Source: an uncultured Acidobacteriota bacterium (GTDB lineage Bacteria > Acidobacteriota > Polarisedimenticolia > J045). From it: a DNA stretch of 64,000 nt. The DNA is taken from positions 96,001 to 160,000 of the forward strand of contig CAVPCQ010000032.1 in assembly GCA_963702425.1 (NCBI GenBank), read 5' to 3'. The translations under genes were made by a program, and so were the position numbers. The notes beneath the pieces were generated by a model. It had not been told where the DNA came from. It saw only the letters and a program-made list of their open reading frames with translations, and made no database searches. Positions 1,313 through 14,368 of the stretch are shown here, piece after piece (within the stretch, counting starts at the first letter, position 1; each line of letters begins with the position of its first letter).

Positions 1313-2503
1313 CTACGGATCCCGCGCGCACCGGAACCCGATGTCCTCGCTCCGGAGATCCGGCATTCCGTGGAATCGTTTCGTAGCGACGAGTCGTTCG
1401 CCAGGGTCGAAGCGCCCGCCGCCGCGTATCACCCGACCGGTTCCGGTTTCCGGCCCCTTCGGATTGCGCACGTCGCCCACGGGGAAGCTGTCCGAGTACC
1501 AGTCGGAGACCCATTCGGACGCATTGCCGGCAAGATCGTGGACGCCGAACGGACTGAGACCGGCAGCGTGCGCACCCACCTTGGCGAGACCGCCGTCGTA
1601 GGCTTCGGGCGACGCGTTCTGGTAGTTCGCATGATCGAGCGTCGGCGACGCGTCGCCCCAGGGATAGCGACGGGCGTCGGTGCCGCGCGCTGCCTTCTCC
1701 CACTCTGCATCGGTCGGCAGGCGTCGGCCGGCCCACTTGCAGTAGGCCGTCGCGTCGTTCCAGTCGACACCGATCACGGGAAGCTCGTCACCGCGACTGA
1801 GATCGAGCGCTTCCCAACCGTCCGGCGGGTGTGAAGACCCGGTGGCGGCGAGGAACCTCCCATAGCGGCCGGTGGTGACTTCGTACCGATCGATGTAGAA
1901 CGCATCGAGGTAGACCTCGCGGCGCGGGGACTCCTCATCGTCCCCCATCGTGAAGTTCCCCGCCGGAACGAGCACGGCGGGAGCGCCGTCCGTGCCGGTG
2001 ATCTCCGAGGCCGGAGCTCCGGGCAAACGCACAAACCAGACGACTGCCGTAATCAGCGCGGCCACCGCGATGCCCCCGGCGACCTTCCATTGGGTCGCGC
2101 GGCGCCGGCGGCGCGCGATGCGATGCACCGCATCGGCCACGGCGGCGGGGATGTTCCCCGGCGAGTCGAGCACCGTCACGGACTTCAGGAACGGCGGCAG
2201 CCGGTCGACCGCCGTGGGCCGCAACAGCACCGGCAGCAACCGCCCGGACGCCTGCTTGAGGTTCTTCTCGGCGACGTCGAGTTCGTTCAGCGTGTAGCTG
2301 CCCGGATCGATCGCATCCTCGCTCACGAGGAACACGAACAGGCCCGCCTCCTCGATCGCGCGCCGGATGCGGATGTGGAATTCCTCGCCGGGCGGCAGAT
2401 CCTCGCGGTCGAAGAACACATCGTGTCCCTGTTCGAGCAGCGCCCGGTTGATCGACTCCGCGAGCGGGCGGTCCTGGGAGGCGTAGCTCAGGAAGATCTT
2501 CAT
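1313..2503 (-). CDS. TIR domain + transmembrane helix + FGE-sulfatase (SUMF1-like) domain protein
   Basis: N-terminal KIFLSYASQD...VFFDR...YTLNEL (TIR); TM segment VAGGIAVAALITAVVWFV; FGE motifs FYIDRYEVT, RLPTDAEWEKAARG, DLAGNASEW, GFRCARD. Confidence 0.88.
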   Translation of the reverse strand: MKIFLSYASQDRPLAESINRALLEQGHDVFFDREDLPPGEEFHIRIRRAIEEAGLFVFLVSEDAIDPGSYTLNELDVAEKNLKQASGRLLPVLLRPTAVDRLPPFLKSVTVLDSPGNIPAAVADAVHRIARRRRRATQWKVAGGIAVAALITAVVWFVRLPGAPASEITGTDGAPAVLVPAGNFTMGDDEESPRREVYLDAFYIDRYEVTTGRYGRFLAATGSSHPPDGWEALDLSRGDELPVIGVDWNDATAYCKWAGRRLPTDAEWEKAARGTDARRYPWGDASPTLDHANYQNASPEAYDGGLAKVGAHAAGLSPFGVHDLAGNASEWVSDWYSDSFPVGDVRNPKGPETGTGRVIRGGGRFDPGERLVATKRFHGMPDLRSEDIGFRCARDP

Positions 2504-3919: not shown

Positions 3920-4070
3920 CGACGAGCTACTGCGCCGAGTTTTCGCTCTGGACGCCCTCCGCTGCCCGCGCTGCTCGTCCCGCATGGAGGTCCTGGCCCG
4001 GCTCCACCCGCCCGATACGGCCCGCGCGATCCTCGACTGCCTCGGGCTCGCCGCCCGTGCCCCGCCCCGC
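3920..4070 (+). pseudogene. IS91/ISCR-type transposase C-terminal fragment (Zn-ribbon)
   Basis: Translates as ELLRRVFALDALRCPRCSSRMEVLARLHPPDTARAILDCLGL, typical of the IS91-like transposase C-terminus; the rest of the gene is absent. Confidence 0.7.
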
Positions 4071-5341
4071 TACAGTCCCGCCGTCCCCGGGTTGAGCCGC
4101 GCGCGATCCATGAGCTCCACCAGGTAGCTGCGCGCCAGCCGCGCGTTCAGCGCCGCCTTGTCCATCACGTCCACCCGGTCCGCCGGCTCCGATGCCAGGG
4201 GCCCCGGTAAGCGCCGAACCACCGGGATGTAGTCCCCCGGGTAGTCGAGCAGGCGCAGGATGTCGACCACCGAGGCGCGCTGCAGGTCGGCGATGCGGAG
4301 TGGCTGCCGCAGCATGGCTTCGCCGAACCATCGCCGCAGCAGGTCCGCCGTGACGTCCACCTTGGCCTGCATCTCGCTCTGCGGGAACGGCATCCCGAAG
4401 GCCCCCTGCCAGAGCTGCAGGATGTCCTGGATCTCCGGGTCGAGCAGGGTGAACGCGAGCGGGCGCTGGCGCAGCTGCGCCTCGAACGCCGCGAGGGCAG
4501 GGACCATCGGCCGGATGGTCGACAGGATGGTCCCGGTGGACACCTGGCCGACGAAGCGCTCACTGCGCGGCCCCGGCGCGGCCCCGCGGGAGTCCACGAT
4601 GAGGATGCGGCGAACGCCCGTGAATCGCTCGGCGAGCGCCGCGATCAGGAAGAGCCGCGTTGACCACCAGGTCGTCGCGAGGTCGATCTTGAGGGCACGC
4701 TGCGTGTCCCCGGCCTCGGTGATGGCCCGCTGGATGCCAAACGAGGCACTGCTGTCGCCGGCCACGCCGGTCGCCGCGTCGAGCGTCGTGGCGGGCTGCA
4801 GGTCCAGCTGGTTGGTGAGCCCCGTCATCGTGATCGCCGCACTCACGCGCGCCTCGAGGTCCGACGGCGTCGTAAACCATGCCACCACGCGCTCCTGTTG
4901 CAGCGCGGTCCGGAGCGTGCGGATCCTCGTCGTATCCGGCTCGCTGCCCACCAGCCCCCGGTCGAACCCGTCAACCAGGCGCGGCGACCAGGGATAGCCC
5001 TCCTCCAGGAGGAAGGCGAGGATCGGGAGCTTCCGGTCCTTCGCCTTGAGGTACTCGTAGTGCGTGATCGAGGTACCGCCCGCTACGGCGCCCGGCACGG
5101 CAGGTGCCGGAGACACGCCCGGGGCCGCGGCCGGCGGCACGTAGCCGTAGCGCCAGGCGAAGATCCCGACGTATGCCTCCGCGCGATCCACCATTTCCAG
5201 CACCTTGGAGAGCGGGGCGGTGGCGCCGGCGGTCATGTCCTCCATGGCGAGGACCTCGTGGCCGAGCTGCCGCAGGATGCGGATGGCGGCGGCGCGGTGC
5301 TCCTGCAGGTCGACAAACGACGATGAGACGAAGACGCGCAT
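4070..5341 (-). CDS. DUF4062 domain protein
   Basis: MRVFVSSSFVDLQEHR...YVGIFAWRYG...SITHYEYLKA...PILAFL; C-terminal half uncharacterised (WWSTRLFL motif). Confidence 0.85.
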   Translation of the reverse strand: MRVFVSSSFVDLQEHRAAAIRILRQLGHEVLAMEDMTAGATAPLSKVLEMVDRAEAYVGIFAWRYGYVPPAAAPGVSPAPAVPGAVAGGTSITHYEYLKAKDRKLPILAFLLEEGYPWSPRLVDGFDRGLVGSEPDTTRIRTLRTALQQERVVAWFTTPSDLEARVSAAITMTGLTNQLDLQPATTLDAATGVAGDSSASFGIQRAITEAGDTQRALKIDLATTWWSTRLFLIAALAERFTGVRRILIVDSRGAAPGPRSERFVGQVSTGTILSTIRPMVPALAAFEAQLRQRPLAFTLLDPEIQDILQLWQGAFGMPFPQSEMQAKVDVTADLLRRWFGEAMLRQPLRIADLQRASVVDILRLLDYPGDYIPVVRRLPGPLASEPADRVDVMDKAALNARLARSYLVELMDRARLNPGTAGL

Positions 5342-5564
5342 GGTCGATTCCTCGCGAGGGGCTGCCTCGAAGCTAGCACGGGTGGGGGCGAGCGGACACT
5401 GGATGATCCCCGCGCCCGTTCTTGACGGCCTCAAACGAATGCGCGCGACGCCTGAAAGCTATCCGACCCTCCCGGCATCTCCTGATGTGCCTCACCAGGC
5501 TCGGCAGCGCTGGCCTCGGCGCATGTTCGCTTGCCCAACCGCGTTCCGGGAGTCCTGACGCGGC

Positions 5565-6350
5565 CTACATCGCCACCTTGAGCCTCGACAAGTCCGCCCG
5601 CGAGATGAACCCCGCGGCCGCACCGAACCAGATCATCCGCGTCTGCCGGTCGTAGACCATGTGCCGCACCGTGTTCCGGTCGCCGGGAATCTCCGTCACG
5701 TTGAAGAACGCCTGCGTCTTCGGGTCGAACCCCACCAGGCGGTTCGGGCGCGCCGGGTTCGCCTCGGCGACCCACACCCGGTCGCGCTCGTCGATCGTCA
5801 TCCCGTACGGCAGCGAGTTCGCCCCGCCGGGGAGCGCCCACTCGTCCACCTTCCCCGTGGCGGGGTCCGGCCGGCCGAGATAGCCGCGCGTGTAGTCGGT
5901 GTAGCAGAGCTTGTCGTCAGAGGAGATCGCGATGCGGCGGTCGCACGTGCGCTCGTTCCCTAACGGGTACGTCGTGAGCTTGAGCCTCGCGGGGTCGAGG
6001 GTCCCGATGGTATTCGTGCCGAAGAGGTCGAACCACGGGTGCCCCTTCGAGTCCATCGCGATGCCATAGCGGCGCGAGCCGGGCTGCGGCATCTTCACGG
6101 GACGGAACTGCTTCGTCGTGACGTCGAGGTGCCCCGCCACGTTCTAGTTCTGGGCGGTGAACCAGATGTTCCCCTGCTTGTCCCACACCATGGTATCCGG
6201 GTCGCGCACGCCATCGGGGATCTCGAAGCGCGTGACCTCGCCCGTGCGGGGATCCAGCCGGCCGGTGGTGCCGTTGGTGTTTCCCGGGTACGACACCATT
6301 CCCTTCGCGTCCACGACGTAGCTGTGGGGATGGGCGTTCTCGTCGCTGCC
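5565..6350 (-). pseudogene. Vgb (virginiamycin B lyase)-like beta-propeller, in-frame stop and 5' truncation
   Basis: Repeats such as GRLDPRTGEVTRF, GNIWFTAQN, YGIAMDSKGHPWF, YGMTIDERDRVW; in-frame TAG at 6144-6146; no intact N-terminus. Confidence 0.75.
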
Positions 6351-6399
6351 CTTCCCGCTTGAAGGTCCTGACGCTGTCCCCACAAATGGCGAATTCGAG

Positions 6400-6659
6400 T
6401 TCGAGGCCTCCCTGCCGCGGCCGCCGGCGTGTGGGCGCGCCGCTTTGGGGTCTCGGAGCGCCAGTCGCGCCGCTACGCCGAGCAGGCGCGCGACGGGGGC
6501 ACGCAGGCCGTCCCGCCGCCGAAGGTCGTCTTCACGGTCAAGCTGCCCGCCGACGCCGTGCGACGGGTCCGGCAGCGGGCGAGAAGTCGGCGGCAAGCGC
6601 TCAGCGCTCTCGTCGAGCAGGTTCTCGCGGACTTCTTGTCCGCGGATCCGGCTGGATGA
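6400..6659 (+). pseudogene. Small HTH/ribbon-helix-helix accessory ORF of the recombinase element
   Basis: ARRFGVSERQSRRY (HTH-like) and VFTVKLPADAVRRVR...LSALVEQVLADFL (RHH-like); start unclear. Confidence 0.55.
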
Positions 6660-6784
6660 CGTGGCGGCGGCTCGACGCGTCGCGATCGAGTACGTCTTCG
6701 ACCGGCTGGGCCGGCTGCGCCTCGCCGAGACTGACGAGCTTCTCGTTCCCGAGCGTCGCCGGAGGACCGACGGAGGACAGGATC

Positions 6785-7630
6785 ATGCCGTGTGCAGCGC
6801 TCTACGCACGAGTCTCGACGCTGGGTCAGAAGGAGGAGGAGACGATCGCCAGCCAGACCGCGGAGCTGAAGGAGCAGGCGCGGTCGGCGGGCCTGATCGT
6901 ACCGCCCGAGTGGGTGTTTGAAGACGCGGAGTGCTCGGGTTCCACGCTGATCCGGCCGGCGCTCGAACGGCTTCGCGATCTGGTCGTCCAGGAGCGCGTC
7001 GACGTGATTCTCTGTCACGCGCCGGACCGGCTGGCTCGGCGCTGCGCCTGCCAGGTGCTGCTGATGGAGGAGTTCGCGCGCACCGGGACCGAGGTCCGGT
7101 TCATCAAGGCGCCGCCGACCGCTACATCCGCAAGGGACCGGACAGCCCGGCGCGCTACGAGATCGTCGAACACGACGCACGGATCGTGCGGGAGTTGTTC
7201 CGGCGGTACGCGGAGGGACGGACCTCGCCGCGCGCATTGGGGCGGTGGCTGACCGAGCGTGCGATCCCGACGGGAGCGGGCAGGGCGTTCTGGGACCAAT
7301 CGACGGTGGCTCAGATCCTGCGCAATCCCGCCTGCCGCGGGTGTGTGGCCTTCGGCCGGAGGGCGCCGGTGGACGACCCGCCGCGGGTCACGCCTTCGCG
7401 CCGTCTGGCCGGTGCAAAGGCCGCGCGGCGCTTCGACGACATCCGGCGCTTCTCGGCTCGCCGCACGAAGGAGCCGTGCGAGGCGGCCGCCGGCACGTTG
7501 GTCCTCGAACGCCAGCGCGTCGTCCGACTCGTCGTCCGGGACGTCCTCGTGGACACCGACACCGTGGTCATTCGGCACACGATCCCCGGACTGGACTCGG
7601 GCGGACGACCCGTTTGCCGCTCGTGGGGAC
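6785..7630 (+). pseudogene. Large serine recombinase, frameshifted and internally deleted
   Basis: ALYARVST..QKEEETIASQ, RPALERLRD and PDRLAR; frame change near 7120 continues as ARIVRELFRRY, WDQSTVAQILRNP and ERQRVVRLVVRDV. Confidence 0.8.
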
Positions 7631-7633
7631 CCC

Positions 7634-7775
7634 GTGTTGGCCCAGATCCACCCGCCCGACACCGCCCGCGTGATCCTCGACTGCCTCGGGCTGGCCTCCC
7701 GTGCCCCGCCCCGCACGCCGGCCCGCGCCGAGCCGGACTCGCTCCCCTTTCCCGCCAACACCGCCGCGGACTGAA
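7634..7775 (+). pseudogene. Second IS91/ISCR transposase C-terminal fragment
   Basis: VLAQIHPPDTARVILDCLGLASRAPPR; the first ~80 bp are a direct repeat of 3990-4070. Confidence 0.65.
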
Positions 7776-8203
7776 CTCCTGGACGAACGCCCCGGCCCAC
7801 GCGGGTCCTGACCACCTGGAGGGTGGATCTCCGCCGCCATGGCGGCCCTCCGCGCGTCCCATCCGGGGCCGCTCTCGCCGCCGCGCAGCGCTCGACCACG
7901 CTCCATCCACGCGGCCGGCCGTTCCCGCCGCTGGCGGCGCACCGACTTCGGCTGGCGTGTCATGAACGCGGCACTCCAGCTGCGCTACCGGGAGTTCCCA
8001 GCCTCCTTCGCTGCGGCGGCTTGAATCTGCTGCCCACTTCTCTTCGGTATGCGGAGAAGTTACAAAGCAATGATTTATCTTCCGGCCGGGGGTGAGTTGC
8101 CCGGGAGGCTTGTCCGCGAAGTCTGCCACGTCCACCACGACGCGTATCGCCGGGCGAACCCCGCCTGTTCGGCGTACGCTCCCCCTCATGAAAGGGGAAA
8201 GAC

Positions 8204-9952
8204 ATGCAAACTCCCAAGGATGGTGGCAAGCCCAAGAATGGTGGAATGCCCGGCAGAAAAATCGAAGTGGGCTCCTTCCGCGGAAAGGAGGTGACGTTCC
8301 TCGCACGCCGGCTGGTGATCCAGCTGGCGGCGTCGGAGGATGAGAAGTTGCTCATGGAATCCGTGGCGACCCTGATGGCCAAGGCCAAGGGCGCACGCGT
8401 GATGCGCGGGCCGAGTGCCACAGGTCGGATCCTGGTCATGCTGCCGGAAGGCCAGAGCGTGATCGAATGGGCCGCACGCTTCTCCGACGAGCGCGCCGTC
8501 GCCTACGCCGAGCCGGACATGCTGGAGCGGCTCCAGATCGTGCCGAACGACACACTGTACTCGAGCCAGTGGAGTCCGGGGATGGTGAATGCGGAGCAAG
8601 CCTGGGACCTCGAGACCGGCAAGACCAATGTGATCATCGGGATCATCGACTCCGGGATCTCCATCACCGGCGGGGCACTGGACCATGACGACCTCAACAC
8701 GCCGGGGCGCTTCGTCCTGGGGACGGACTTCGTGGATGGGGGCACGCCTCGCGACCTGAACGGCCACGGCACACACGTGACGGGGATTGCGGCAGCGATG
8801 GGCGACAACGGCACTGGGATCGCGGGGATGAACTGGGGATCGCAAGTATACATCTGTCGGACGTTCGATGCGGGAGGGAACGGCAGCTCGGCGGACTTTG
8901 CCGACGCCGTCGAGGAGATCACGGATTTCGCCGTGGCCAACGGGCTGAAGGCAGTGATCAACTACAGCGGCGGCGGCGTGGACAACCAGACTAAACAAGA
9001 CGCCGCCACGTACGCGTCGAACAACGGGATGCTCCTGGTTGCGGCGACCGGCAACGACAACGGCGGACCGGTGATCTTCCCGGCCGCGTATTCGACCACG
9101 ATCACGGGAGTCATCGCGGTCGGATCGACGGATTCCAACGACACCGTCTCGGGATTCTCGAACGTTGGACCCGAGGTGACCGTGGTGGCGCCGGGCGGCG
9201 ACATCCTATCGACGACGCCAACCTACAACGTGACCCTCTCGGGCCCGCCGGCCAACCTCGCGCTCAACCACGGCAACCTGAGCGGAACTTCCATGGCGAC
9301 GCCCATGGTCACTGGGTTGGCGGCCTTGATGTGGAGCCGGCACCCCAGCCACACGAATCAGAAGGTCAAGCAGTGCCTGATCGACACGGCCGTCAAGCTG
9401 GGCTCGGGGAACTTCGACAACAGCTGGGGCTTCGGCCGAATCGACGCGTACGCCGCACTCAAGTGCGGAGACTGGATCATGCCCTCGAAGCTAATCCTCT
9501 GCAAGTCGAGGCTGGTCCTCTGCACGTCGAAGCTGAGCACTTGCAGGACGCAGCTGTCCGTCTGCAAGTCGAAGCTGACCATCTGCAGCTCGCAGCTGGT
9601 AATCTGCAAATCGCAGTTGACAGTCTGCAAGTCGCAACTGACGCTCTGCGGAAAGTCGCAGTTGGTTCTCTGCCCAACCAAGTCGTTCCTCGATGCCTGC
9701 CCGGTCAGGTCGGTCCTGGCGGCCTGCCCTTCAGCGGTGGACGCGTGCCCGTCGACGCCCGGAGGATGCGAGTTCGTCGACCCGAGAGAACTTCTGGTCG
9801 ACCCGCTCATCCGGATCGCGGGACTTGAGTACCGGCTTCAGGAGCTCAAGACGGAGCTGTGGTACGGTGCGGGCGCGGCCAAGGCGCCCGATGCCGGCGA
9901 CGACGACGGTTGGTTCGTCCTCGACGACGGTGGCAATATCCACCTCATCTAA
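8204..9952 (+). CDS. Subtilisin-family (S8) protease with I9-like prodomain, fused to a C-terminal Cys/Ser/Thr-rich repeat (putative RiPP core) and acidic tail
   Basis: Triad IIDSG, NGHGTHVTG, GTSMATP; prodomain ends YAEPD before the mature-like PND..Y..QW; no signal peptide; tail of 13 x [S/T]x4C. Confidence 0.92.
   Translation: MQTPKDGGKPKNGGMPGRKIEVGSFRGKEVTFLARRLVIQLAASEDEKLLMESVATLMAKAKGARVMRGPSATGRILVMLPEGQSVIEWAARFSDERAVAYAEPDMLERLQIVPNDTLYSSQWSPGMVNAEQAWDLETGKTNVIIGIIDSGISITGGALDHDDLNTPGRFVLGTDFVDGGTPRDLNGHGTHVTGIAAAMGDNGTGIAGMNWGSQVYICRTFDAGGNGSSADFADAVEEITDFAVANGLKAVINYSGGGVDNQTKQDAATYASNNGMLLVAATGNDNGGPVIFPAAYSTTITGVIAVGSTDSNDTVSGFSNVGPEVTVVAPGGDILSTTPTYNVTLSGPPANLALNHGNLSGTSMATPMVTGLAALMWSRHPSHTNQKVKQCLIDTAVKLGSGNFDNSWGFGRIDAYAALKCGDWIMPSKLILCKSRLVLCTSKLSTCRTQLSVCKSKLTICSSQLVICKSQLTVCKSQLTLCGKSQLVLCPTKSFLDACPVRSVLAACPSAVDACPSTPGGCEFVDPRELLVDPLIRIAGLEYRLQELKTELWYGAGAAKAPDAGDDDGWFVLDDGGNIHLI
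9485..9769 (+). repeat. Intragenic tandem repeat (21-27 nt units) encoding 13 [S/T]-x4-C units
   Basis: Units such as tgcaagtcgaggctggtcctc, tgcaagtcgaagctgaccatc and tgcaagtcgcaactgacgctc. Confidence 0.9.
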
Positions 9953-9973
9953 GTCAAGCAGGAGGACTGTGGT

Positions 9974-11005
9974 GTGAGTGAACTGGGACTGGCCCGGCGG
10001 GCTGCGCGATTCGTGATCACACGTGGGTTGATCTCGCACGAGGAGGTCCATCGCTACGGGATCCGAGCCCGGGACCTATCCCAGTCCAACGGCGTTGCGC
10101 TGGTCGAGTCCGGCAACGGACGAGGCTTCGTGGCGAAGGATATGAGGCCGACGCGCTCGGGGGACCAGGGTTCCCCCGAGCGCGAACTCGGCCTCTACCG
10201 GGCCATCTCGGGCCGGAAGGAGCTCGAGGCCTTCACGCCGCGGTTCCATGGGTACGACGACGGGGAACACATCCTGCTCATCGAGGGCCTTTCGTCGTCT
10301 CGGCGCCTCGATCAGCTCGGCGGCGGGCGAAGCGTGCTGGATCCTGAACTAGCGGGTCGGGTCGGCGCGGCCTTGGGTCTGTGGCACCTGCGTGCGGCGG
10401 CGCTGGACGGTCTGGATCGAGCCGTGATCTGGTTCCTCGGCATCGACGGCGAGAACCGCCTGGCCGTACTCGATGCTGATGCGCGTCTGCGCGAGCTCAC
10501 CCTGAAGATCCTCTCCGACCCAGAGTTGAAGAAGTGCCTGGTGCGCGTGCGTGCCCACTGGACGGACGAGACGGTGATCCACGGCGATGTGCGCTTCGCC
10601 AACGTCATGGTCTGTCCCGCACCGCAAGTCGTTCGCTTCATCGACTGGGAGACCAGCGGGATGGGCGATCCGGCCTGGGACGTGGCGGGCGGCGTCCAGG
10701 AGTATCTGAGCGTAGGGATCGCGGGCGGACATCCGCTGGAGAGTTCGCCGGCCGGAGATCCGGTGGAGGCGTTCCTCAGGCGCTACCGGGAGACGTCTCG
10801 CAGCTCGATGCCGTGGTCGCGCTTCGCGCCCTTCGTCGCGTGCCGCCTGATGATGCGGGCGCTGCAGCTGACGTTGTGGGATGGGGACGCACGGGAGGCG
10901 ACCGAGCAGCACCTGAAACTGGCCGCAGAGATCGGCACAAGGACGGAAAGTCCGTTCGAGCGCGTTCCGCAGGACGACCCGGCACTCCAGTCCACGGACC
11001 AATGA
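9974..11005 (+). CDS. APH-family phosphotransferase (LanK-like Ser/Thr kinase)
   Basis: FVAK, Brenner motif IHGDVRFANVM, FIDWE..GMGDPAWDVA; GTG start after a CAGGAGG RBS. Confidence 0.85.
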   Translation: MSELGLARRAARFVITRGLISHEEVHRYGIRARDLSQSNGVALVESGNGRGFVAKDMRPTRSGDQGSPERELGLYRAISGRKELEAFTPRFHGYDDGEHILLIEGLSSSRRLDQLGGGRSVLDPELAGRVGAALGLWHLRAAALDGLDRAVIWFLGIDGENRLAVLDADARLRELTLKILSDPELKKCLVRVRAHWTDETVIHGDVRFANVMVCPAPQVVRFIDWETSGMGDPAWDVAGGVQEYLSVGIAGGHPLESSPAGDPVEAFLRRYRETSRSSMPWSRFAPFVACRLMMRALQLTLWDGDAREATEQHLKLAAEIGTRTESPFERVPQDDPALQSTDQ

Positions 11006-11937
11006 TCAGCGCCATGCACGGCGATCTCCTCGAAGCGGCTGAGTGGTTGGTCGACCAAACCCTACGCCACGAGGCAGCGAACGAGGGTCCTGACGAGCTG
11101 GCGCTCAGGCTCTACGATTGGTACCTGAATACGTCGCCGCTGCCCAAGCCCACGGGTCCACTGCTCCCCTATGAGCTCAACCTGCCGGCTGCCGTGCGCG
11201 GTGCACACCATGAAACGCCCCGCTTCGAGGGCGGATGGAAGGCGCAGACCGCTTCATCGTGGGGGCGGGTGGTGGCGAACAAGGGAGACGAGACCCGAGT
11301 GCTCGAGCGCAGCGAGTATACGGTTCCCGGCCGACGTGGGTTGCGCGCCCAACACGGCGACGCTCTCCTCGTCTCCCGCTGCTGGGACTGGGTCGACGAG
11401 GAGACCGGATTCTGGCACTACAGGCGCGGGACCTGGCCTCCCCCCGGAGCGGACCGCCTCGTCCGGATCTATTGGAACTGTGTGCCTGCCGAGGCTCCGC
11501 GCGTCATTGCGCAGGTGTCCCTGGTTCTGGGCGCCGCGGCCGATGTCCCGTTCATGGTGAAGACCCCCGCGCGATCCGATCACAACGGACGCGCGGACGC
11601 CGTCGTGAGCTACCTGGGACCCGATGGGTATTCGAGATTCGAGTGCGAGCTCCGAGCGACCGCGGAGTCGCTCGCTGTGTGCCTGCGGCCGCAGACTCCG
11701 CGAATGACGCATCGGCTGGCCCCCGGAGTAGCCCTCACCGAAGGCAAACTGGGCGGAGACAGCTTCGGCGATGTGCGTTGCCGACTCTTGGCCGATACGT
11801 TTTGCGAGGCAAGCGCCGAGGCTCGCCGCTCGGTGCCGCAGCTTGTGGAGAGGATCGGTGCAGACTTCCGAGCGACGGGCCTGGACCCCGCACGCCCATA
11901 CCTCGAGCCAGGGCCGGTTCGTGACTACGACGGTTGA
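11002..11937 (+). CDS. HopA1-family phosphoSer/Thr lyase (LanY-like)
   Basis: VRIYWN, PFMVK, RADAVVSY, PRMTHRLAPGVALTE and SFGDVRCRLLA motifs; ATGA overlap with the kinase stop. Confidence 0.8.
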   Translation: MISAMHGDLLEAAEWLVDQTLRHEAANEGPDELALRLYDWYLNTSPLPKPTGPLLPYELNLPAAVRGAHHETPRFEGGWKAQTASSWGRVVANKGDETRVLERSEYTVPGRRGLRAQHGDALLVSRCWDWVDEETGFWHYRRGTWPPPGADRLVRIYWNCVPAEAPRVIAQVSLVLGAAADVPFMVKTPARSDHNGRADAVVSYLGPDGYSRFECELRATAESLAVCLRPQTPRMTHRLAPGVALTEGKLGGDSFGDVRCRLLADTFCEASAEARRSVPQLVERIGADFRATGLDPARPYLEPGPVRDYDG

Positions 11938-13408
11938 CTACCTGGCGCTCGCGGGCGGCATCGCGAATCGGCTGTGCGACGAGGCCATCCGCAGCCAGGG
12001 GCGCGCGACGTGGCTCGGCGACGAGAAGGAGAGTTTCGACGGAAGCTGGGAGGTCGTTTGCAAGACCGTCGACGGAGACCTGTACGGTGGCACGGCCGGA
12101 ATCGGCCTGTTCCTCGCCCGGATGGCCGCCGCGACGAAGGACCCTCGTTACCGCACCACAGCGCTCGAGGCCTTGGCCCACGCGACGGAGTGGACGCGGC
12201 GCACTCGATCCCTGGGCACGCTCTACGGCGGAGCGGCGGGCGTAGCAGCTGAGCTGGCGGAAGCCGGAAGGCTGCTCGATGAGCCGGGATTGACGGACGA
12301 GGCCTTTCGTGTCGCAGGCGAGAGCATCGACCACCCACCTCAGGGGGCGAACGACTTGATCTCCGGCCGGGCGGGGTCGATCGTCGCGCTTCTGCACCTC
12401 GCGCGGACGTTGCCCTTCGACGCCGCGTTGGAAGCAGCTCGCGAGCTCGGCGAGCAGATCGTGAAGGCCGCTGTGGGAACGCCATTCCCGGGCGCTGCCT
12501 GGCCATCGGACATCGGGCCGAACGAGCCTCCCCTGTGCGGACTCTCGCACGGTGCCTCGGGTATCGCCTGGGCCCTGGAGGAACTCGCGCTGATCACCGG
12601 AGAGCAACGCTACAGCCAGGTTGCTGCTTCCGCGGCCGCCTATGAACGGGCCTGGTACCAGCGGGAGGAGGGGAACTGGCCGGACCTCCGAGAGTTCACT
12701 CGCGCCAAGCTGGCGCGCGGCGAAGCCCCCGGCTTCCCGATGTTCTGGTGCCACGGTGCCGTCGGGATCGGTCTGGTGCGCCTGCGCCAATTCGAATTGA
12801 CCGGGGAGACGGTCTACGCCGTAGAGGCCGAAGCTGCCATGATGTCCGCCGAGAAACAGATCGCAGAGGTCTTCGAGGCACCGCGAGTCGACCTATCCCT
12901 GTGCCACGGTGTGGCTGGATTCGCTGAACTGTTCCTCGAGGGGGCTCGGGTCTTCGCACAACCGCTCTTGCGTGAGAAGGCGCTGTCCTGCGTCGACTTG
13001 GCGGCGCGCTGTGGGCAAGACGGGGCAGGGCCGTGGCCGTGCGGCATCCCCGACGGTGGCGAGAACCCCAGCCTCATGGTCGGGCTCGCGGGTATCGGGA
13101 TGATGTTCCTCAGAGCGGCCGATTCCAGCGTGCCTTCGGTGGGCCTGCCCTATACTCTACCGATCATGATTCCCCGATTGATCGTCCAGCTCAAAGTCAC
13201 CGAATCGCCGGCCGACCTGCAGGCTCGCGCAGCCGAGGTCGCCGCACTTCTGCCCGGCAGCCGCATAGAACGGATCTCTCGGCGCGGGCGCGTCCTCATT
13301 CGCCTACCCGCGGGTGCATCCGCAGAGTCTGCGGCACGATCGCTTTCCGGCCGCCAGGGAGTGGAGTACGCCGAACCCGACGCCGTGGACCACCAGACTG
13401 GCGAGTAG
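11921..13408 (+). CDS. LanC-type lanthionine cyclase with C-terminal subtilisin-prodomain-like domain
   Basis: LYGGTAGI, DLISGRAG, GLSHGASG, WCHG and LCHG (Zn ligands), LMVGLAGIG; GTG start overlaps the upstream gene; extra ~80 aa domain ending YAEPD. Confidence 0.9.
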   Translation: MTTTVDYLALAGGIANRLCDEAIRSQGRATWLGDEKESFDGSWEVVCKTVDGDLYGGTAGIGLFLARMAAATKDPRYRTTALEALAHATEWTRRTRSLGTLYGGAAGVAAELAEAGRLLDEPGLTDEAFRVAGESIDHPPQGANDLISGRAGSIVALLHLARTLPFDAALEAARELGEQIVKAAVGTPFPGAAWPSDIGPNEPPLCGLSHGASGIAWALEELALITGEQRYSQVAASAAAYERAWYQREEGNWPDLREFTRAKLARGEAPGFPMFWCHGAVGIGLVRLRQFELTGETVYAVEAEAAMMSAEKQIAEVFEAPRVDLSLCHGVAGFAELFLEGARVFAQPLLREKALSCVDLAARCGQDGAGPWPCGIPDGGENPSLMVGLAGIGMMFLRAADSSVPSVGLPYTLPIMIPRLIVQLKVTESPADLQARAAEVAALLPGSRIERISRRGRVLIRLPAGASAESAARSLSGRQGVEYAEPDAVDHQTGE

Positions 13409-13504
13409 GGTTTCGAAGGCGTTGTTGGCTAGATGCATCAAAGAGGCAGGAGTGTGCCTGGCCACTACCCCGTCCGCCTTGCCCTTCAACGAGTTGCGTT
13501 CCGA

Positions 13505-13906
13505 TGCAGGAGATCCGGATCGCCATCATTCAGCCCGCAACCGTCATTCGCTGGCATCGCAAAGGTTTCAGACGGTACTGGCACTGGAAGTCGCGGCGCC
13601 ACGCTGGACGCCCGACCTCAACGGCCAATACCCGCGCTCTCGTCCACCTCATGGCGGCCGAGAATCCGTCGCGGGGCGCGCCGCGATCTCCTCGACCACG
13701 TCATCGTCCTCAACGAGAAGCACCTGCAGCGCCTTGTGGCCTGCTTCGCCTCGTACGGCCTCGACAACCGGACGCACTTGTCCCTGAAGAGGGATGCGCC
13801 CGCGATGCGAGCCGTGGAGTCGAGCCCGCATCCAGCCGCCGAGATCATCGCTCGACCTCGCCTCGGCGGGCTTCATCATCGCTACGCTTGGCGCCGCGCG
13901 GCTTGA
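13505..13906 (+). pseudogene. Integrase-core (IS3/IS481-like) transposase relic with large internal deletion
   Basis: IIQPATVIRWHRKGFR..W..KS..GRP...MAAENP..GAPR joined out of frame to LLDHVIVLNEKHL...RTHLSL..DAP...PRLGGLHHRY. Confidence 0.78.
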
Positions 13907-14368
13907 CGATTCCGCTCGACCCGTCCACCGCCGCGGCCTCGTCGTGGAGCGGCTGTGCCTTTGTGGAAGGCAGACCGTCGCCATCTCTGTCAACCGATGG
14001 GCATGACCGTCCCCGACACACGTAGGGGCGCGTTCGGCCGGCGTGTTTGCCTGCCATTCCAAGCCGCGTGAGCCATCAGCAATGCGCCTGCTCGATATTG
14101 GCGAAGAACAGGTGGCTCGGGAGCTGGCGGGCTGGACTTCCAGCGGCTCTTCGGGTGCGGCCCCTTCGTGGCCGGCCTCTGCGAGCGAGCGCGGCGGGGA
14201 GCGGCGGCACGGCTCCATGCCCCCCGGACTCCGCCTGCCGGCGCGAGGCCGATCCGAGAGGCGCCGGAGGCGGTCTCCGGGCGTTGCCAGGAAGAGCGGC
14301 GCTGGAGTAGTCTCGCGCCGTTCGCAACAGGCGATCCGCGCCGTGCGCGGTCGCGCGGAGGACTCGAG

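Follow-up and report, generated by a model that had tools for sequence, protein, structure and literature searches.

Why should a lanthionine cyclase end in a copy of a protease prodomain? This question is raised by a stretch of 64,000 nucleotides (nt) from an uncultured Acidobacteriota bacterium (GenBank assembly GCA_963702425.1, contig CAVPCQ010000032.1, positions 96,001 to 160,000 of the forward strand), which is called the window here. Four tightly packed genes at 8204-13408 on the plus strand encode an S8 (subtilisin-type) protease, the kinase LanK, the lyase LanY and the cyclase LanC (Table 1). The last 80 residues of this LanC protein (P0005) resemble the N-terminal part of the S8 protease, and judged by sequence, this tail and the prodomain of its neighbour are true paralogues.

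A sequence-only reading of the window had placed the tail at 13166..13408 and had aligned it by eye with the protease N-terminus. Both claims were borne out. The coding span of the tail is 13166-13405, with the opening Met at 13166, and the stop codon follows at 13406-13408. The BLASTP comparison of the tail with the S8 N-terminus (8204-8560) gave 27 identical residues in 74 columns (36%) with one gap and an E value of 3e-11. The local alignment score was 107, about 15 standard deviations above the scores of 2000 shuffled tails (27.9 +/- 5.3, maximum 57), none of which reached it. The profile–profile alignment by hhalign, for which 12 tails were compared with 40 S8 proteins, returned a probability of 99.0% (E 3.7e-18) over 79 collinear columns and paired S8 residues 34-113 with tail residues 2-80.

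The Pfam family matched by the tail is PF22148, the Fervidolysin N-terminal prodomain (38.5 bits against a cut-off of 21, E 1.6e-9). Nine homologs fused to LanC and two of the three encoded as split open reading frames (ORFs) scored 22.2-32.9 bits for the same family, the third split ORF (L019) lying outside this Pfam scan. The N-terminus of the S8 protease itself matched PF22148 weakly (E 0.014, 16.2 bits, under the cut-off of 21). Five places in the genome bear PF22148, and the tblastn match to the tail was significant only for the neighbouring S8 gene (E 4e-9), the best of the other four giving an E value of 0.012 over 16 residues. The tail had earlier been described as an I9-like propeptide. 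This description held as far as homology to a subtilase prodomain is concerned, but not for the I9 family in the strict sense: no match of the tail to Inhibitor_I9 (PF05922) was seen in Pfam at E <= 1, where only PF22148 and one chance family appeared and where HMMER filters may drop weak matches. At the same threshold, the tail had no match to the PqqD-type recognition element (PF05402) of ribosomally made peptides with post-translational modifications (RiPPs). It should be noted that prodomains of PF22148 precede an S8 catalytic domain, from which they are cleaved, whereas the module described here forms the C-terminal end of LanC or has an ORF to itself, with a stop codon after it.

The fusion is not a one-off relic, a doubt that the sequence-only reading had itself raised. 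The LanC alignment was drawn from the first 41 rows of hits, 38 of which reached a coverage of 85% or more; P0025 (a fragment of 343 residues) as well as P0042 and P0043 (73% coverage) were left out. The tail is present in all 38 of these homologs, across phyla, and residues R451, G456, R457, E485 and D487 are invariant; the fused form has been kept in 38 clusters with identities down to ~40%. We also surveyed 80 related loci, among which the 12 close ones with sequence after LanC all contain the module. In nine of them (L007-L012, L014, L015 and L017) it is in frame with LanC, and in three it has an ORF of its own, which overlaps the stop of LanC over 4 nt (L018, ATGA, 80 residues; L024, GTGA, 93 residues; L019, GTGA, 106 residues). 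The profile search of five whole genomes gave two strong matches in each, one in the S8 prodomain and one in the copy beside LanC, with a third, weak match in G001 (E 3.6e-4).

For the family search, a profile of 12 tails was run against 1.84 billion representatives. It retrieved 103 clusters at E <= 1e-3, of which 35 reached E <= 1e-10. A regex heuristic sorted the 103 clusters into 51 stand-alone proteins, 17 LanC fusions or fragments, 19 S8 N-termini and 16 unclear cases (15 without a motif and one other). This heuristic made errors: the LanC fusion P0023 was labelled as S8, P0333 was mislabelled, and P0266, P0291, P0296 and P0332, labelled as stand-alone, look like fragments of S8. The stand-alone proteins have 76-160 residues, mostly 76-125, and the cis-prodomains of S8 proteases occur only among the weaker matches (E ~1e-8 and above). 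In more distant loci with the S8-LanK-LanY-LanC order, where the S8 catalytic domain is ~35% identical, small ORFs on the opposite strand adjoin the cassette and match the profile weakly (L025, L028, L031 and L052 at E 1e-6 to 3e-4, L060 and L033 at ~2e-3, L021 and L049 more weakly). Since split, stand-alone and opposite-strand forms exist, LanC need not be covalently joined to the module, and with the module so often free-standing, the docking through LanC would be a clade-specific addition and not the core role. Taken across these forms, the module is most likely a conserved fifth component of a system built around a protease with a lanthionine tail.

Two further observations were made in these surveys. 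Thirteen stand-alone proteins (P0270, P0273, P0275, P0279, P0281, P0283, P0285, P0287, P0290, P0294, P0295, P0308 and P0310) form a second subtype with the hairpin VRPPSxSGR, as in S8 cis-prodomains, and not the VRVSxxGR of LanC tails; they may represent prodomains of S8 proteases with genes of their own. In other LanC clades, the proteins of L035, L042, L046, L056 and L067 have C-terminal extensions of ~210-240 residues at the position of the tail with no clear Pfam family, L056 showing a faint PqqD match (E 0.088) and L046 a match to NGO1945_C (E 0.0012).

To follow the history of the two copies, a tree was built with 13 tails and, from the same loci, 11 cis-prodomains. The two kinds stand on either side of one branch, with weak support (77/68), and the internal order is equal on both sides, the three split-form loci grouping together and the fused clade together. 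Such a tree fits one old duplication, co-divergence afterwards and a single event of fusion or fission. The earlier proposal that the tail ties the protease to the modification enzymes agrees with these mirrored trees and with the presence of both copies in every close locus; the tail is also independent evidence for the S8 protease as a member of the modification system. As to the event itself, the first residue of the tail is Met in 15, Val in six and Leu in one of the 38 fused proteins. A GGAG/GGAGG-like stretch lies 6-8 nt before the tail-opening ATG or GTG in six Streptosporangiaceae loci (among L008-L012, L014 and L017); in the window, the ATG of the tail is present and no GGAG-like stretch precedes it. 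The stretch is possibly a leftover of the split gene or a working internal start, and its position before an in-frame start means that the domain might also be made as a free protein in the Streptosporangiaceae.

The tail was also considered as the beginning of a broken second protease gene. This was ruled out, as no S8 catalytic sequence follows in any frame and the homologs end alike.

The point at which the module ends was compared with the end of the prodomain in the S8 protease. The cis-prodomain closes with YAEPD at residues 101-105, followed by six residues and then IVPND, and this junction, YAEPD-x6-(I/V)VPND with the x6 consensus VVDxAQ, is kept in the 40 aligned S8 homologs (alignment A3). 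By analogy with thermitase-type subtilases, self-cleavage of S8 is predicted just before (I/V)VPND. The stand-alone proteins mostly stop 5-7 residues after a conserved E-x-D motif, exactly six in 17 of the 51, and the column six residues after E-x-D falls, by A3 and hhalign together, on the final residue of the prodomain ahead of (I/V)VPND. In the distant loci, the eight small ORFs end five or six residues after E-x-D, and the fused tails mostly extend 0-3 residues further. If S8 cleaves itself where predicted, the C-terminus of the module would mimic the P1 end of a cleaved propeptide.

According to PMC6993865, cleaved propeptides remain bound to their proteases as tight inhibitors, their C-terminal tail occupies the active-site groove, and in BPN' two helices of the catalytic domain are capped by Glu69 and Asp71 of the propeptide. 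The invariant E-x-D at the end of the last strand of the LanC tail matches the place of Glu69/Asp71 as described there, and the motifs are presumably equivalent residue by residue. Together, E-x-D and the end point appear to fit a mimic of a cleaved propeptide in the active-site cleft.

The structure of LanC was modelled by AlphaFold2 (AF2), with a mean predicted local distance difference test (pLDDT) value of 93.5 and a predicted template modelling (pTM) score of 0.91. In addition to its PF05147 match, the core is similar in Foldseek to the solved LicM2, CuvL, LanCL1/2, MadC and NisC (E 4e-14 to 4e-8), in agreement with the alpha-toroid fold of LanC cyclases. The WCHG and CHG motifs are invariant across the 38 homologs, as are H210, C277-H278 and C328-H329, which we take to be the Cys/Cys-His zinc site and the catalytic His. 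The linker and tail were modelled at pLDDT 87-95, and in this model the tail shows the propeptide topology with a disordered C-terminal strand. The Foldseek search of the tail model against the PDB found nothing at E <= 0.001; the top four matches were subtilisin prosegments, at E 6e-3 to 1e-2 only.

The S8 protease has an intact catalytic triad (Asp147 in IIDSG, His188 in HGTHV and Ser361 in GTSMA), and no hydrophobic signal peptide was seen by eye in its N-terminus. The S/T-x4-C motifs that follow its catalytic domain are candidate sites of (methyl)lanthionine rings, and S8 is the probable substrate of LanK, LanY and LanC. Beyond the repeats lies a conserved C-terminal motif, present in most of the 40 aligned S8 proteins and duplicated in L018 and L019. 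It is possibly a follower or recognition element, which would be an alternative to docking through the LanC tail. More than 120 close S8 relatives of similar length were found among the matches listed. Of the 41 candidate ORFs scanned upstream of LanK in the related loci, 31 encode an S8 protease, and the remaining ten encode 221-525 residues with repeats of the same kind.

Two groups of relatives deviate from this pattern. In L041 (4581-5774), L045 (4862-5785), L061, L068, L070 and L073, the gene before LanK encodes a non-protease of 250-400 residues with no Pfam match and with up to 14 S/T-x4-C repeats. Six S8 relatives in A3 (P0190, P0197, P0207, P0228, P0234 and P0242), 50-52% identical to the protease of the window, have tail repeats of the FT(R/S)FT type without any cysteine, followed by a different helical C-terminus.

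The kinase, lyase and cyclase of the cassette correspond, by gene content, to the class V(b) lanthionine synthetases of PMC12328550. As with SmoK/SmoY/SmoC there, one operon holds separate genes for a kinase of the APH type, a lyase of the HopA1 type and a cyclase of the LanC type. In the window, they are adjacent or overlapping: the ATG of LanY overlaps the stop of LanK (ATGA), and the GTG start of LanC at 11921 overlaps the end of LanY by 17 nt. The LanC ORF spans 11771-13408, and the gene called from this GTG to 13408 encodes 495 residues; a genome-wide check found it to be the only LanC gene of this genome. The cassette differs from the systems of that source in three respects: the cyclase has an additional prodomain-like domain, the kinase matches the NCBIfam model LxmK with 47.7 bits, far under the cut-off of 315, and there is no gene for a small precursor. 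Within 8204-13408, there is no room for a precursor peptide with leader and core, the small ORFs elsewhere in the window not having been searched exhaustively, and the only Ser/Thr/Cys-rich candidate substrate there is the tail of the 582-residue protease.

Table 1. Features of the S8-LanK-LanY-LanC cassette and its downstream border in the window.
Feature	Position	Strand	Basis
S8 (subtilisin-type) protease, 582 residues	8204..9952	+	PF00082, E 2.5e-48, residues 141-411
Own (cis) prodomain of S8, residues ~34-109	8303..8530	+	hhalign to LanC tail; weak PF22148
Thirteen S/T-x4-C motifs of S8, residues 428-522 (candidate ring sites)	9485..9769	+	Regex count; nine in a 7-residue register
Conserved C-terminal motif of S8, GWFVLDDGGNIHLI	9908..9949	+	Alignment A3; consensus WFYVDDDGxxHxx
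LanK-type kinase	9974..11005	+	PF01636 (APH), E 5.2e-16
LanY-type phospho-Ser/Thr lyase	11002..11937	+	PF17914 (HopA1), E 2.1e-20
LanC cyclase core	11921..13165	+	PF05147, E 1.3e-51
Prodomain-like LanC tail, 80 residues (P0005 416-495), and stop	13166..13408	+	BLASTP, Pfam, profile alignment, AF2
Degraded ORF pieces of transposase/integrase look	13433..14025	+	Translations by eye; no Pfam match at E <= 0.001

How could the module act on the protease? It probably binds the S8 catalytic domain in the way a cleaved propeptide does. In the mechanism that we propose, the tail would take the usual place of a propeptide on the folded catalytic domain, with its beta-sheet lying on two surface helices that would be capped by the invariant Glu and Asp of E-x-D, and its free C-terminal strand would enter the non-prime side of the active-site cleft. 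With the cleft occupied, the cytoplasmic S8 protease would be held inactive. In the clade of the window, the fusion would let the same contact tether the cyclase to the protein that it cyclises; LanK and LanY would first dehydrate the Ser/Thr/Cys repeats of S8, and LanC would cyclise them afterwards. We assign a probability of roughly 0.45 to this reading, namely that a propeptide copy acting in trans occupies the propeptide site of S8, keeps the cytoplasmic protease off and tethers LanC in this clade.

Several points weigh against it. The cis-prodomain of S8 would hold the same site until its removal, which is a difficulty for all models of binding. The module can do without its link to LanC, as the frequent stand-alone forms show, and the gain from tethering may therefore be small. 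The tail of the window runs two residues beyond the predicted junction and ends in HQTGE, compared with ERLQ in S8, and the cleavage position in S8 is itself deduced from the motif and by comparison with thermitase-type subtilases. In the model, the tail has a common ferredoxin-like fold, and the propeptides did not score above unrelated proteins in VIA-align: the Z score was 9.6 for Mesd/Boca, 8.1 for the furin/PC1 prodomains and 7.6 for prosubtilisin, the propeptides ranging over 7.1-8.1. The search of the tail profile against solved structures by sequence gave nothing meaningful (best E 0.26). In view of the VIA-align scores and the weak Foldseek E values, the fold alone is no proof, and the identity of the tail as a propeptide rests on sequence.

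A more far-reaching version of the mechanism is doubtful. Here, the duplicated propeptide fold would be the recognition module of a protein-sized RiPP system in which the folded S8 protease takes the place of the leader, so that one contact would both bring the cyclase and gate the protease; release would then free the protease, possibly onto its own poly-lanthionine tail. The sequence-only reading likewise cast the protease as the 'leader' and had it inhibited until the tail is cyclised; both ideas are speculative.

As the main alternative, the module could be an inhibitor only, a safety catch for the cytoplasmic protease in the manner of free-standing I9-type inhibitors, with its fusion to LanC an accident of the 4-nt overlap and with recognition left to LanK and LanY or to the follower motif. 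We consider this somewhat unlikely. About half of the 103 clusters are free-standing, three of the 12 close loci have a split ORF, and the small opposite-strand ORFs of the distant loci are uncoupled from LanC, all of which suits a plain inhibitor; so does the conservation of the C-terminal motif after the repeats in most of the 40 S8 proteins. A precedent for recognition by the kinase is CaoK, which binds the leader peptide in cacaoidin biosynthesis according to PMC12328550. An accidental fusion, however, is hard to reconcile with the retention of the fused form in 38 clusters down to ~40% identity. Moreover, the pLDDT of the linker and tail together with the whole-protein pTM of 0.91 suggest a fixed packing on LanC and no loose appendage, and where the module is split off, its translational coupling to LanC suggests that the two are made in matched amounts.

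It is improbable, in our judgment, that the module serves as an adaptor for another surface, binding either the S8 prodomain sheet to sheet or the follower motif by strand addition. RiPP recognition elements of the PqqD-like type are typically discrete or fused to modifying enzymes, which makes such an adaptor conceivable, and the follower motif is conserved and has the look of a beta-hairpin. The different extensions of ~210-240 residues at the same place in other LanC clades, one with the faint PqqD match, can be read in the same sense. But the tail is not similar to PqqD-type elements, and E-x-D and the exact C-terminal stop suit a module at the canonical propeptide site, no other role being obvious for them.

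There is little to recommend a foldase acting in trans, by which the second copy would fold or refold S8, for example, after the loss of the cis-prodomain or during the modification of the long tail. The co-divergence of the two copies would be expected in this case, but all 11 close S8 genes examined have a complete cis-prodomain, so a second foldase seems redundant. The degraded mobile-element ORF directly downstream in the window could suggest that the tail is a relic without function, left by the duplication or truncation of a protease gene. This is strongly disfavoured, since the tail has invariant residues in all 38 homologs, which span phyla, the module is present in 12 of 12 close loci and its own family has more than 100 clusters.

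The preferred reading, a propeptide copy acting in trans on S8, has parallels among eukaryotic proteins. PMC6993865 describes stand-alone propeptide-like proteins as potent inhibitors of subtilases and names Pleurotus POIA1, the yeast proteinase B inhibitor, Arabidopsis SPI-1, Toxoplasma MIC5 and Plasmodium SUB1-ProM. As in the inhibitors described there, the module has a propeptide fold and is encoded apart from the protease that it resembles, next to the protease gene; acidic residues are kept at the end of its last strand, and its C-terminal tail could enter the active site. Unlike them, it comes from bacteria, is part of an operon for lanthionine synthetases and in one clade has become joined to the cyclase, its inhibitory action here being a prediction; its partner, moreover, retains its own prodomain and a probable lanthipeptide core. 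In contrast to the cis-acting prodomains of PF22148, it stands at the C-terminus of LanC or alone, never before a catalytic domain, and ends at the would-be cleavage point. With RiPP recognition elements, it shares the small size, the existence in separate form or fused to a modifying enzyme and the position beside the substrate gene, but its fold and family are unrelated, and its presumed target is a folded enzyme domain of 300 residues and not a short leader peptide.

Our literature search, with subscription journals and closed supplements lying outside it, found no paper on a LanC-prodomain fusion, on this module or on an S8-fused lanthipeptide substrate; the domain does appear in the automatic names of some LanC entries in the databases. 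Known cases of free propeptide mimics acting as regulators of subtilases come mainly from fungi, plants and parasites, and here such a family is bacterial, comprises more than 100 clusters and occurs in a lanthionine-synthetase operon. If the proposed mechanism is true, it would account for the recognition of an entire folded protein by enzymes whose usual target is a short leader peptide, and it would explain how a cytoplasmic protease with a lanthipeptide-like tail is kept safe. The tail domain could then act as a portable handle that directs the cyclase to a chosen protein.

The ORF pieces at 13433-14025 end the cassette and are outside the system. On the flanks of the cassette are a TIR + FGE-sulfatase fusion protein (1313-2503, minus strand), a DUF4062 protein (4070-5434, minus strand), a serine recombinase over two frames (6359-7965, plus strand) and the degraded transposase-like ORFs just mentioned (plus strand). 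The guanine-plus-cytosine content is 0.634 at 8001-10000 and ~0.70 in the surroundings. The region looks like a mobile or defence-type island; PADLOC detected no defence system apart from matches to a generic subtilase and, very weakly, to IetS (E 1.3e-4). The adjacent ORFs at 5565-6140 and 6144-6596, both on the minus strand, each match part of the virginiamycin B lyase family and are probably one gene split by a stop codon or a frameshift.

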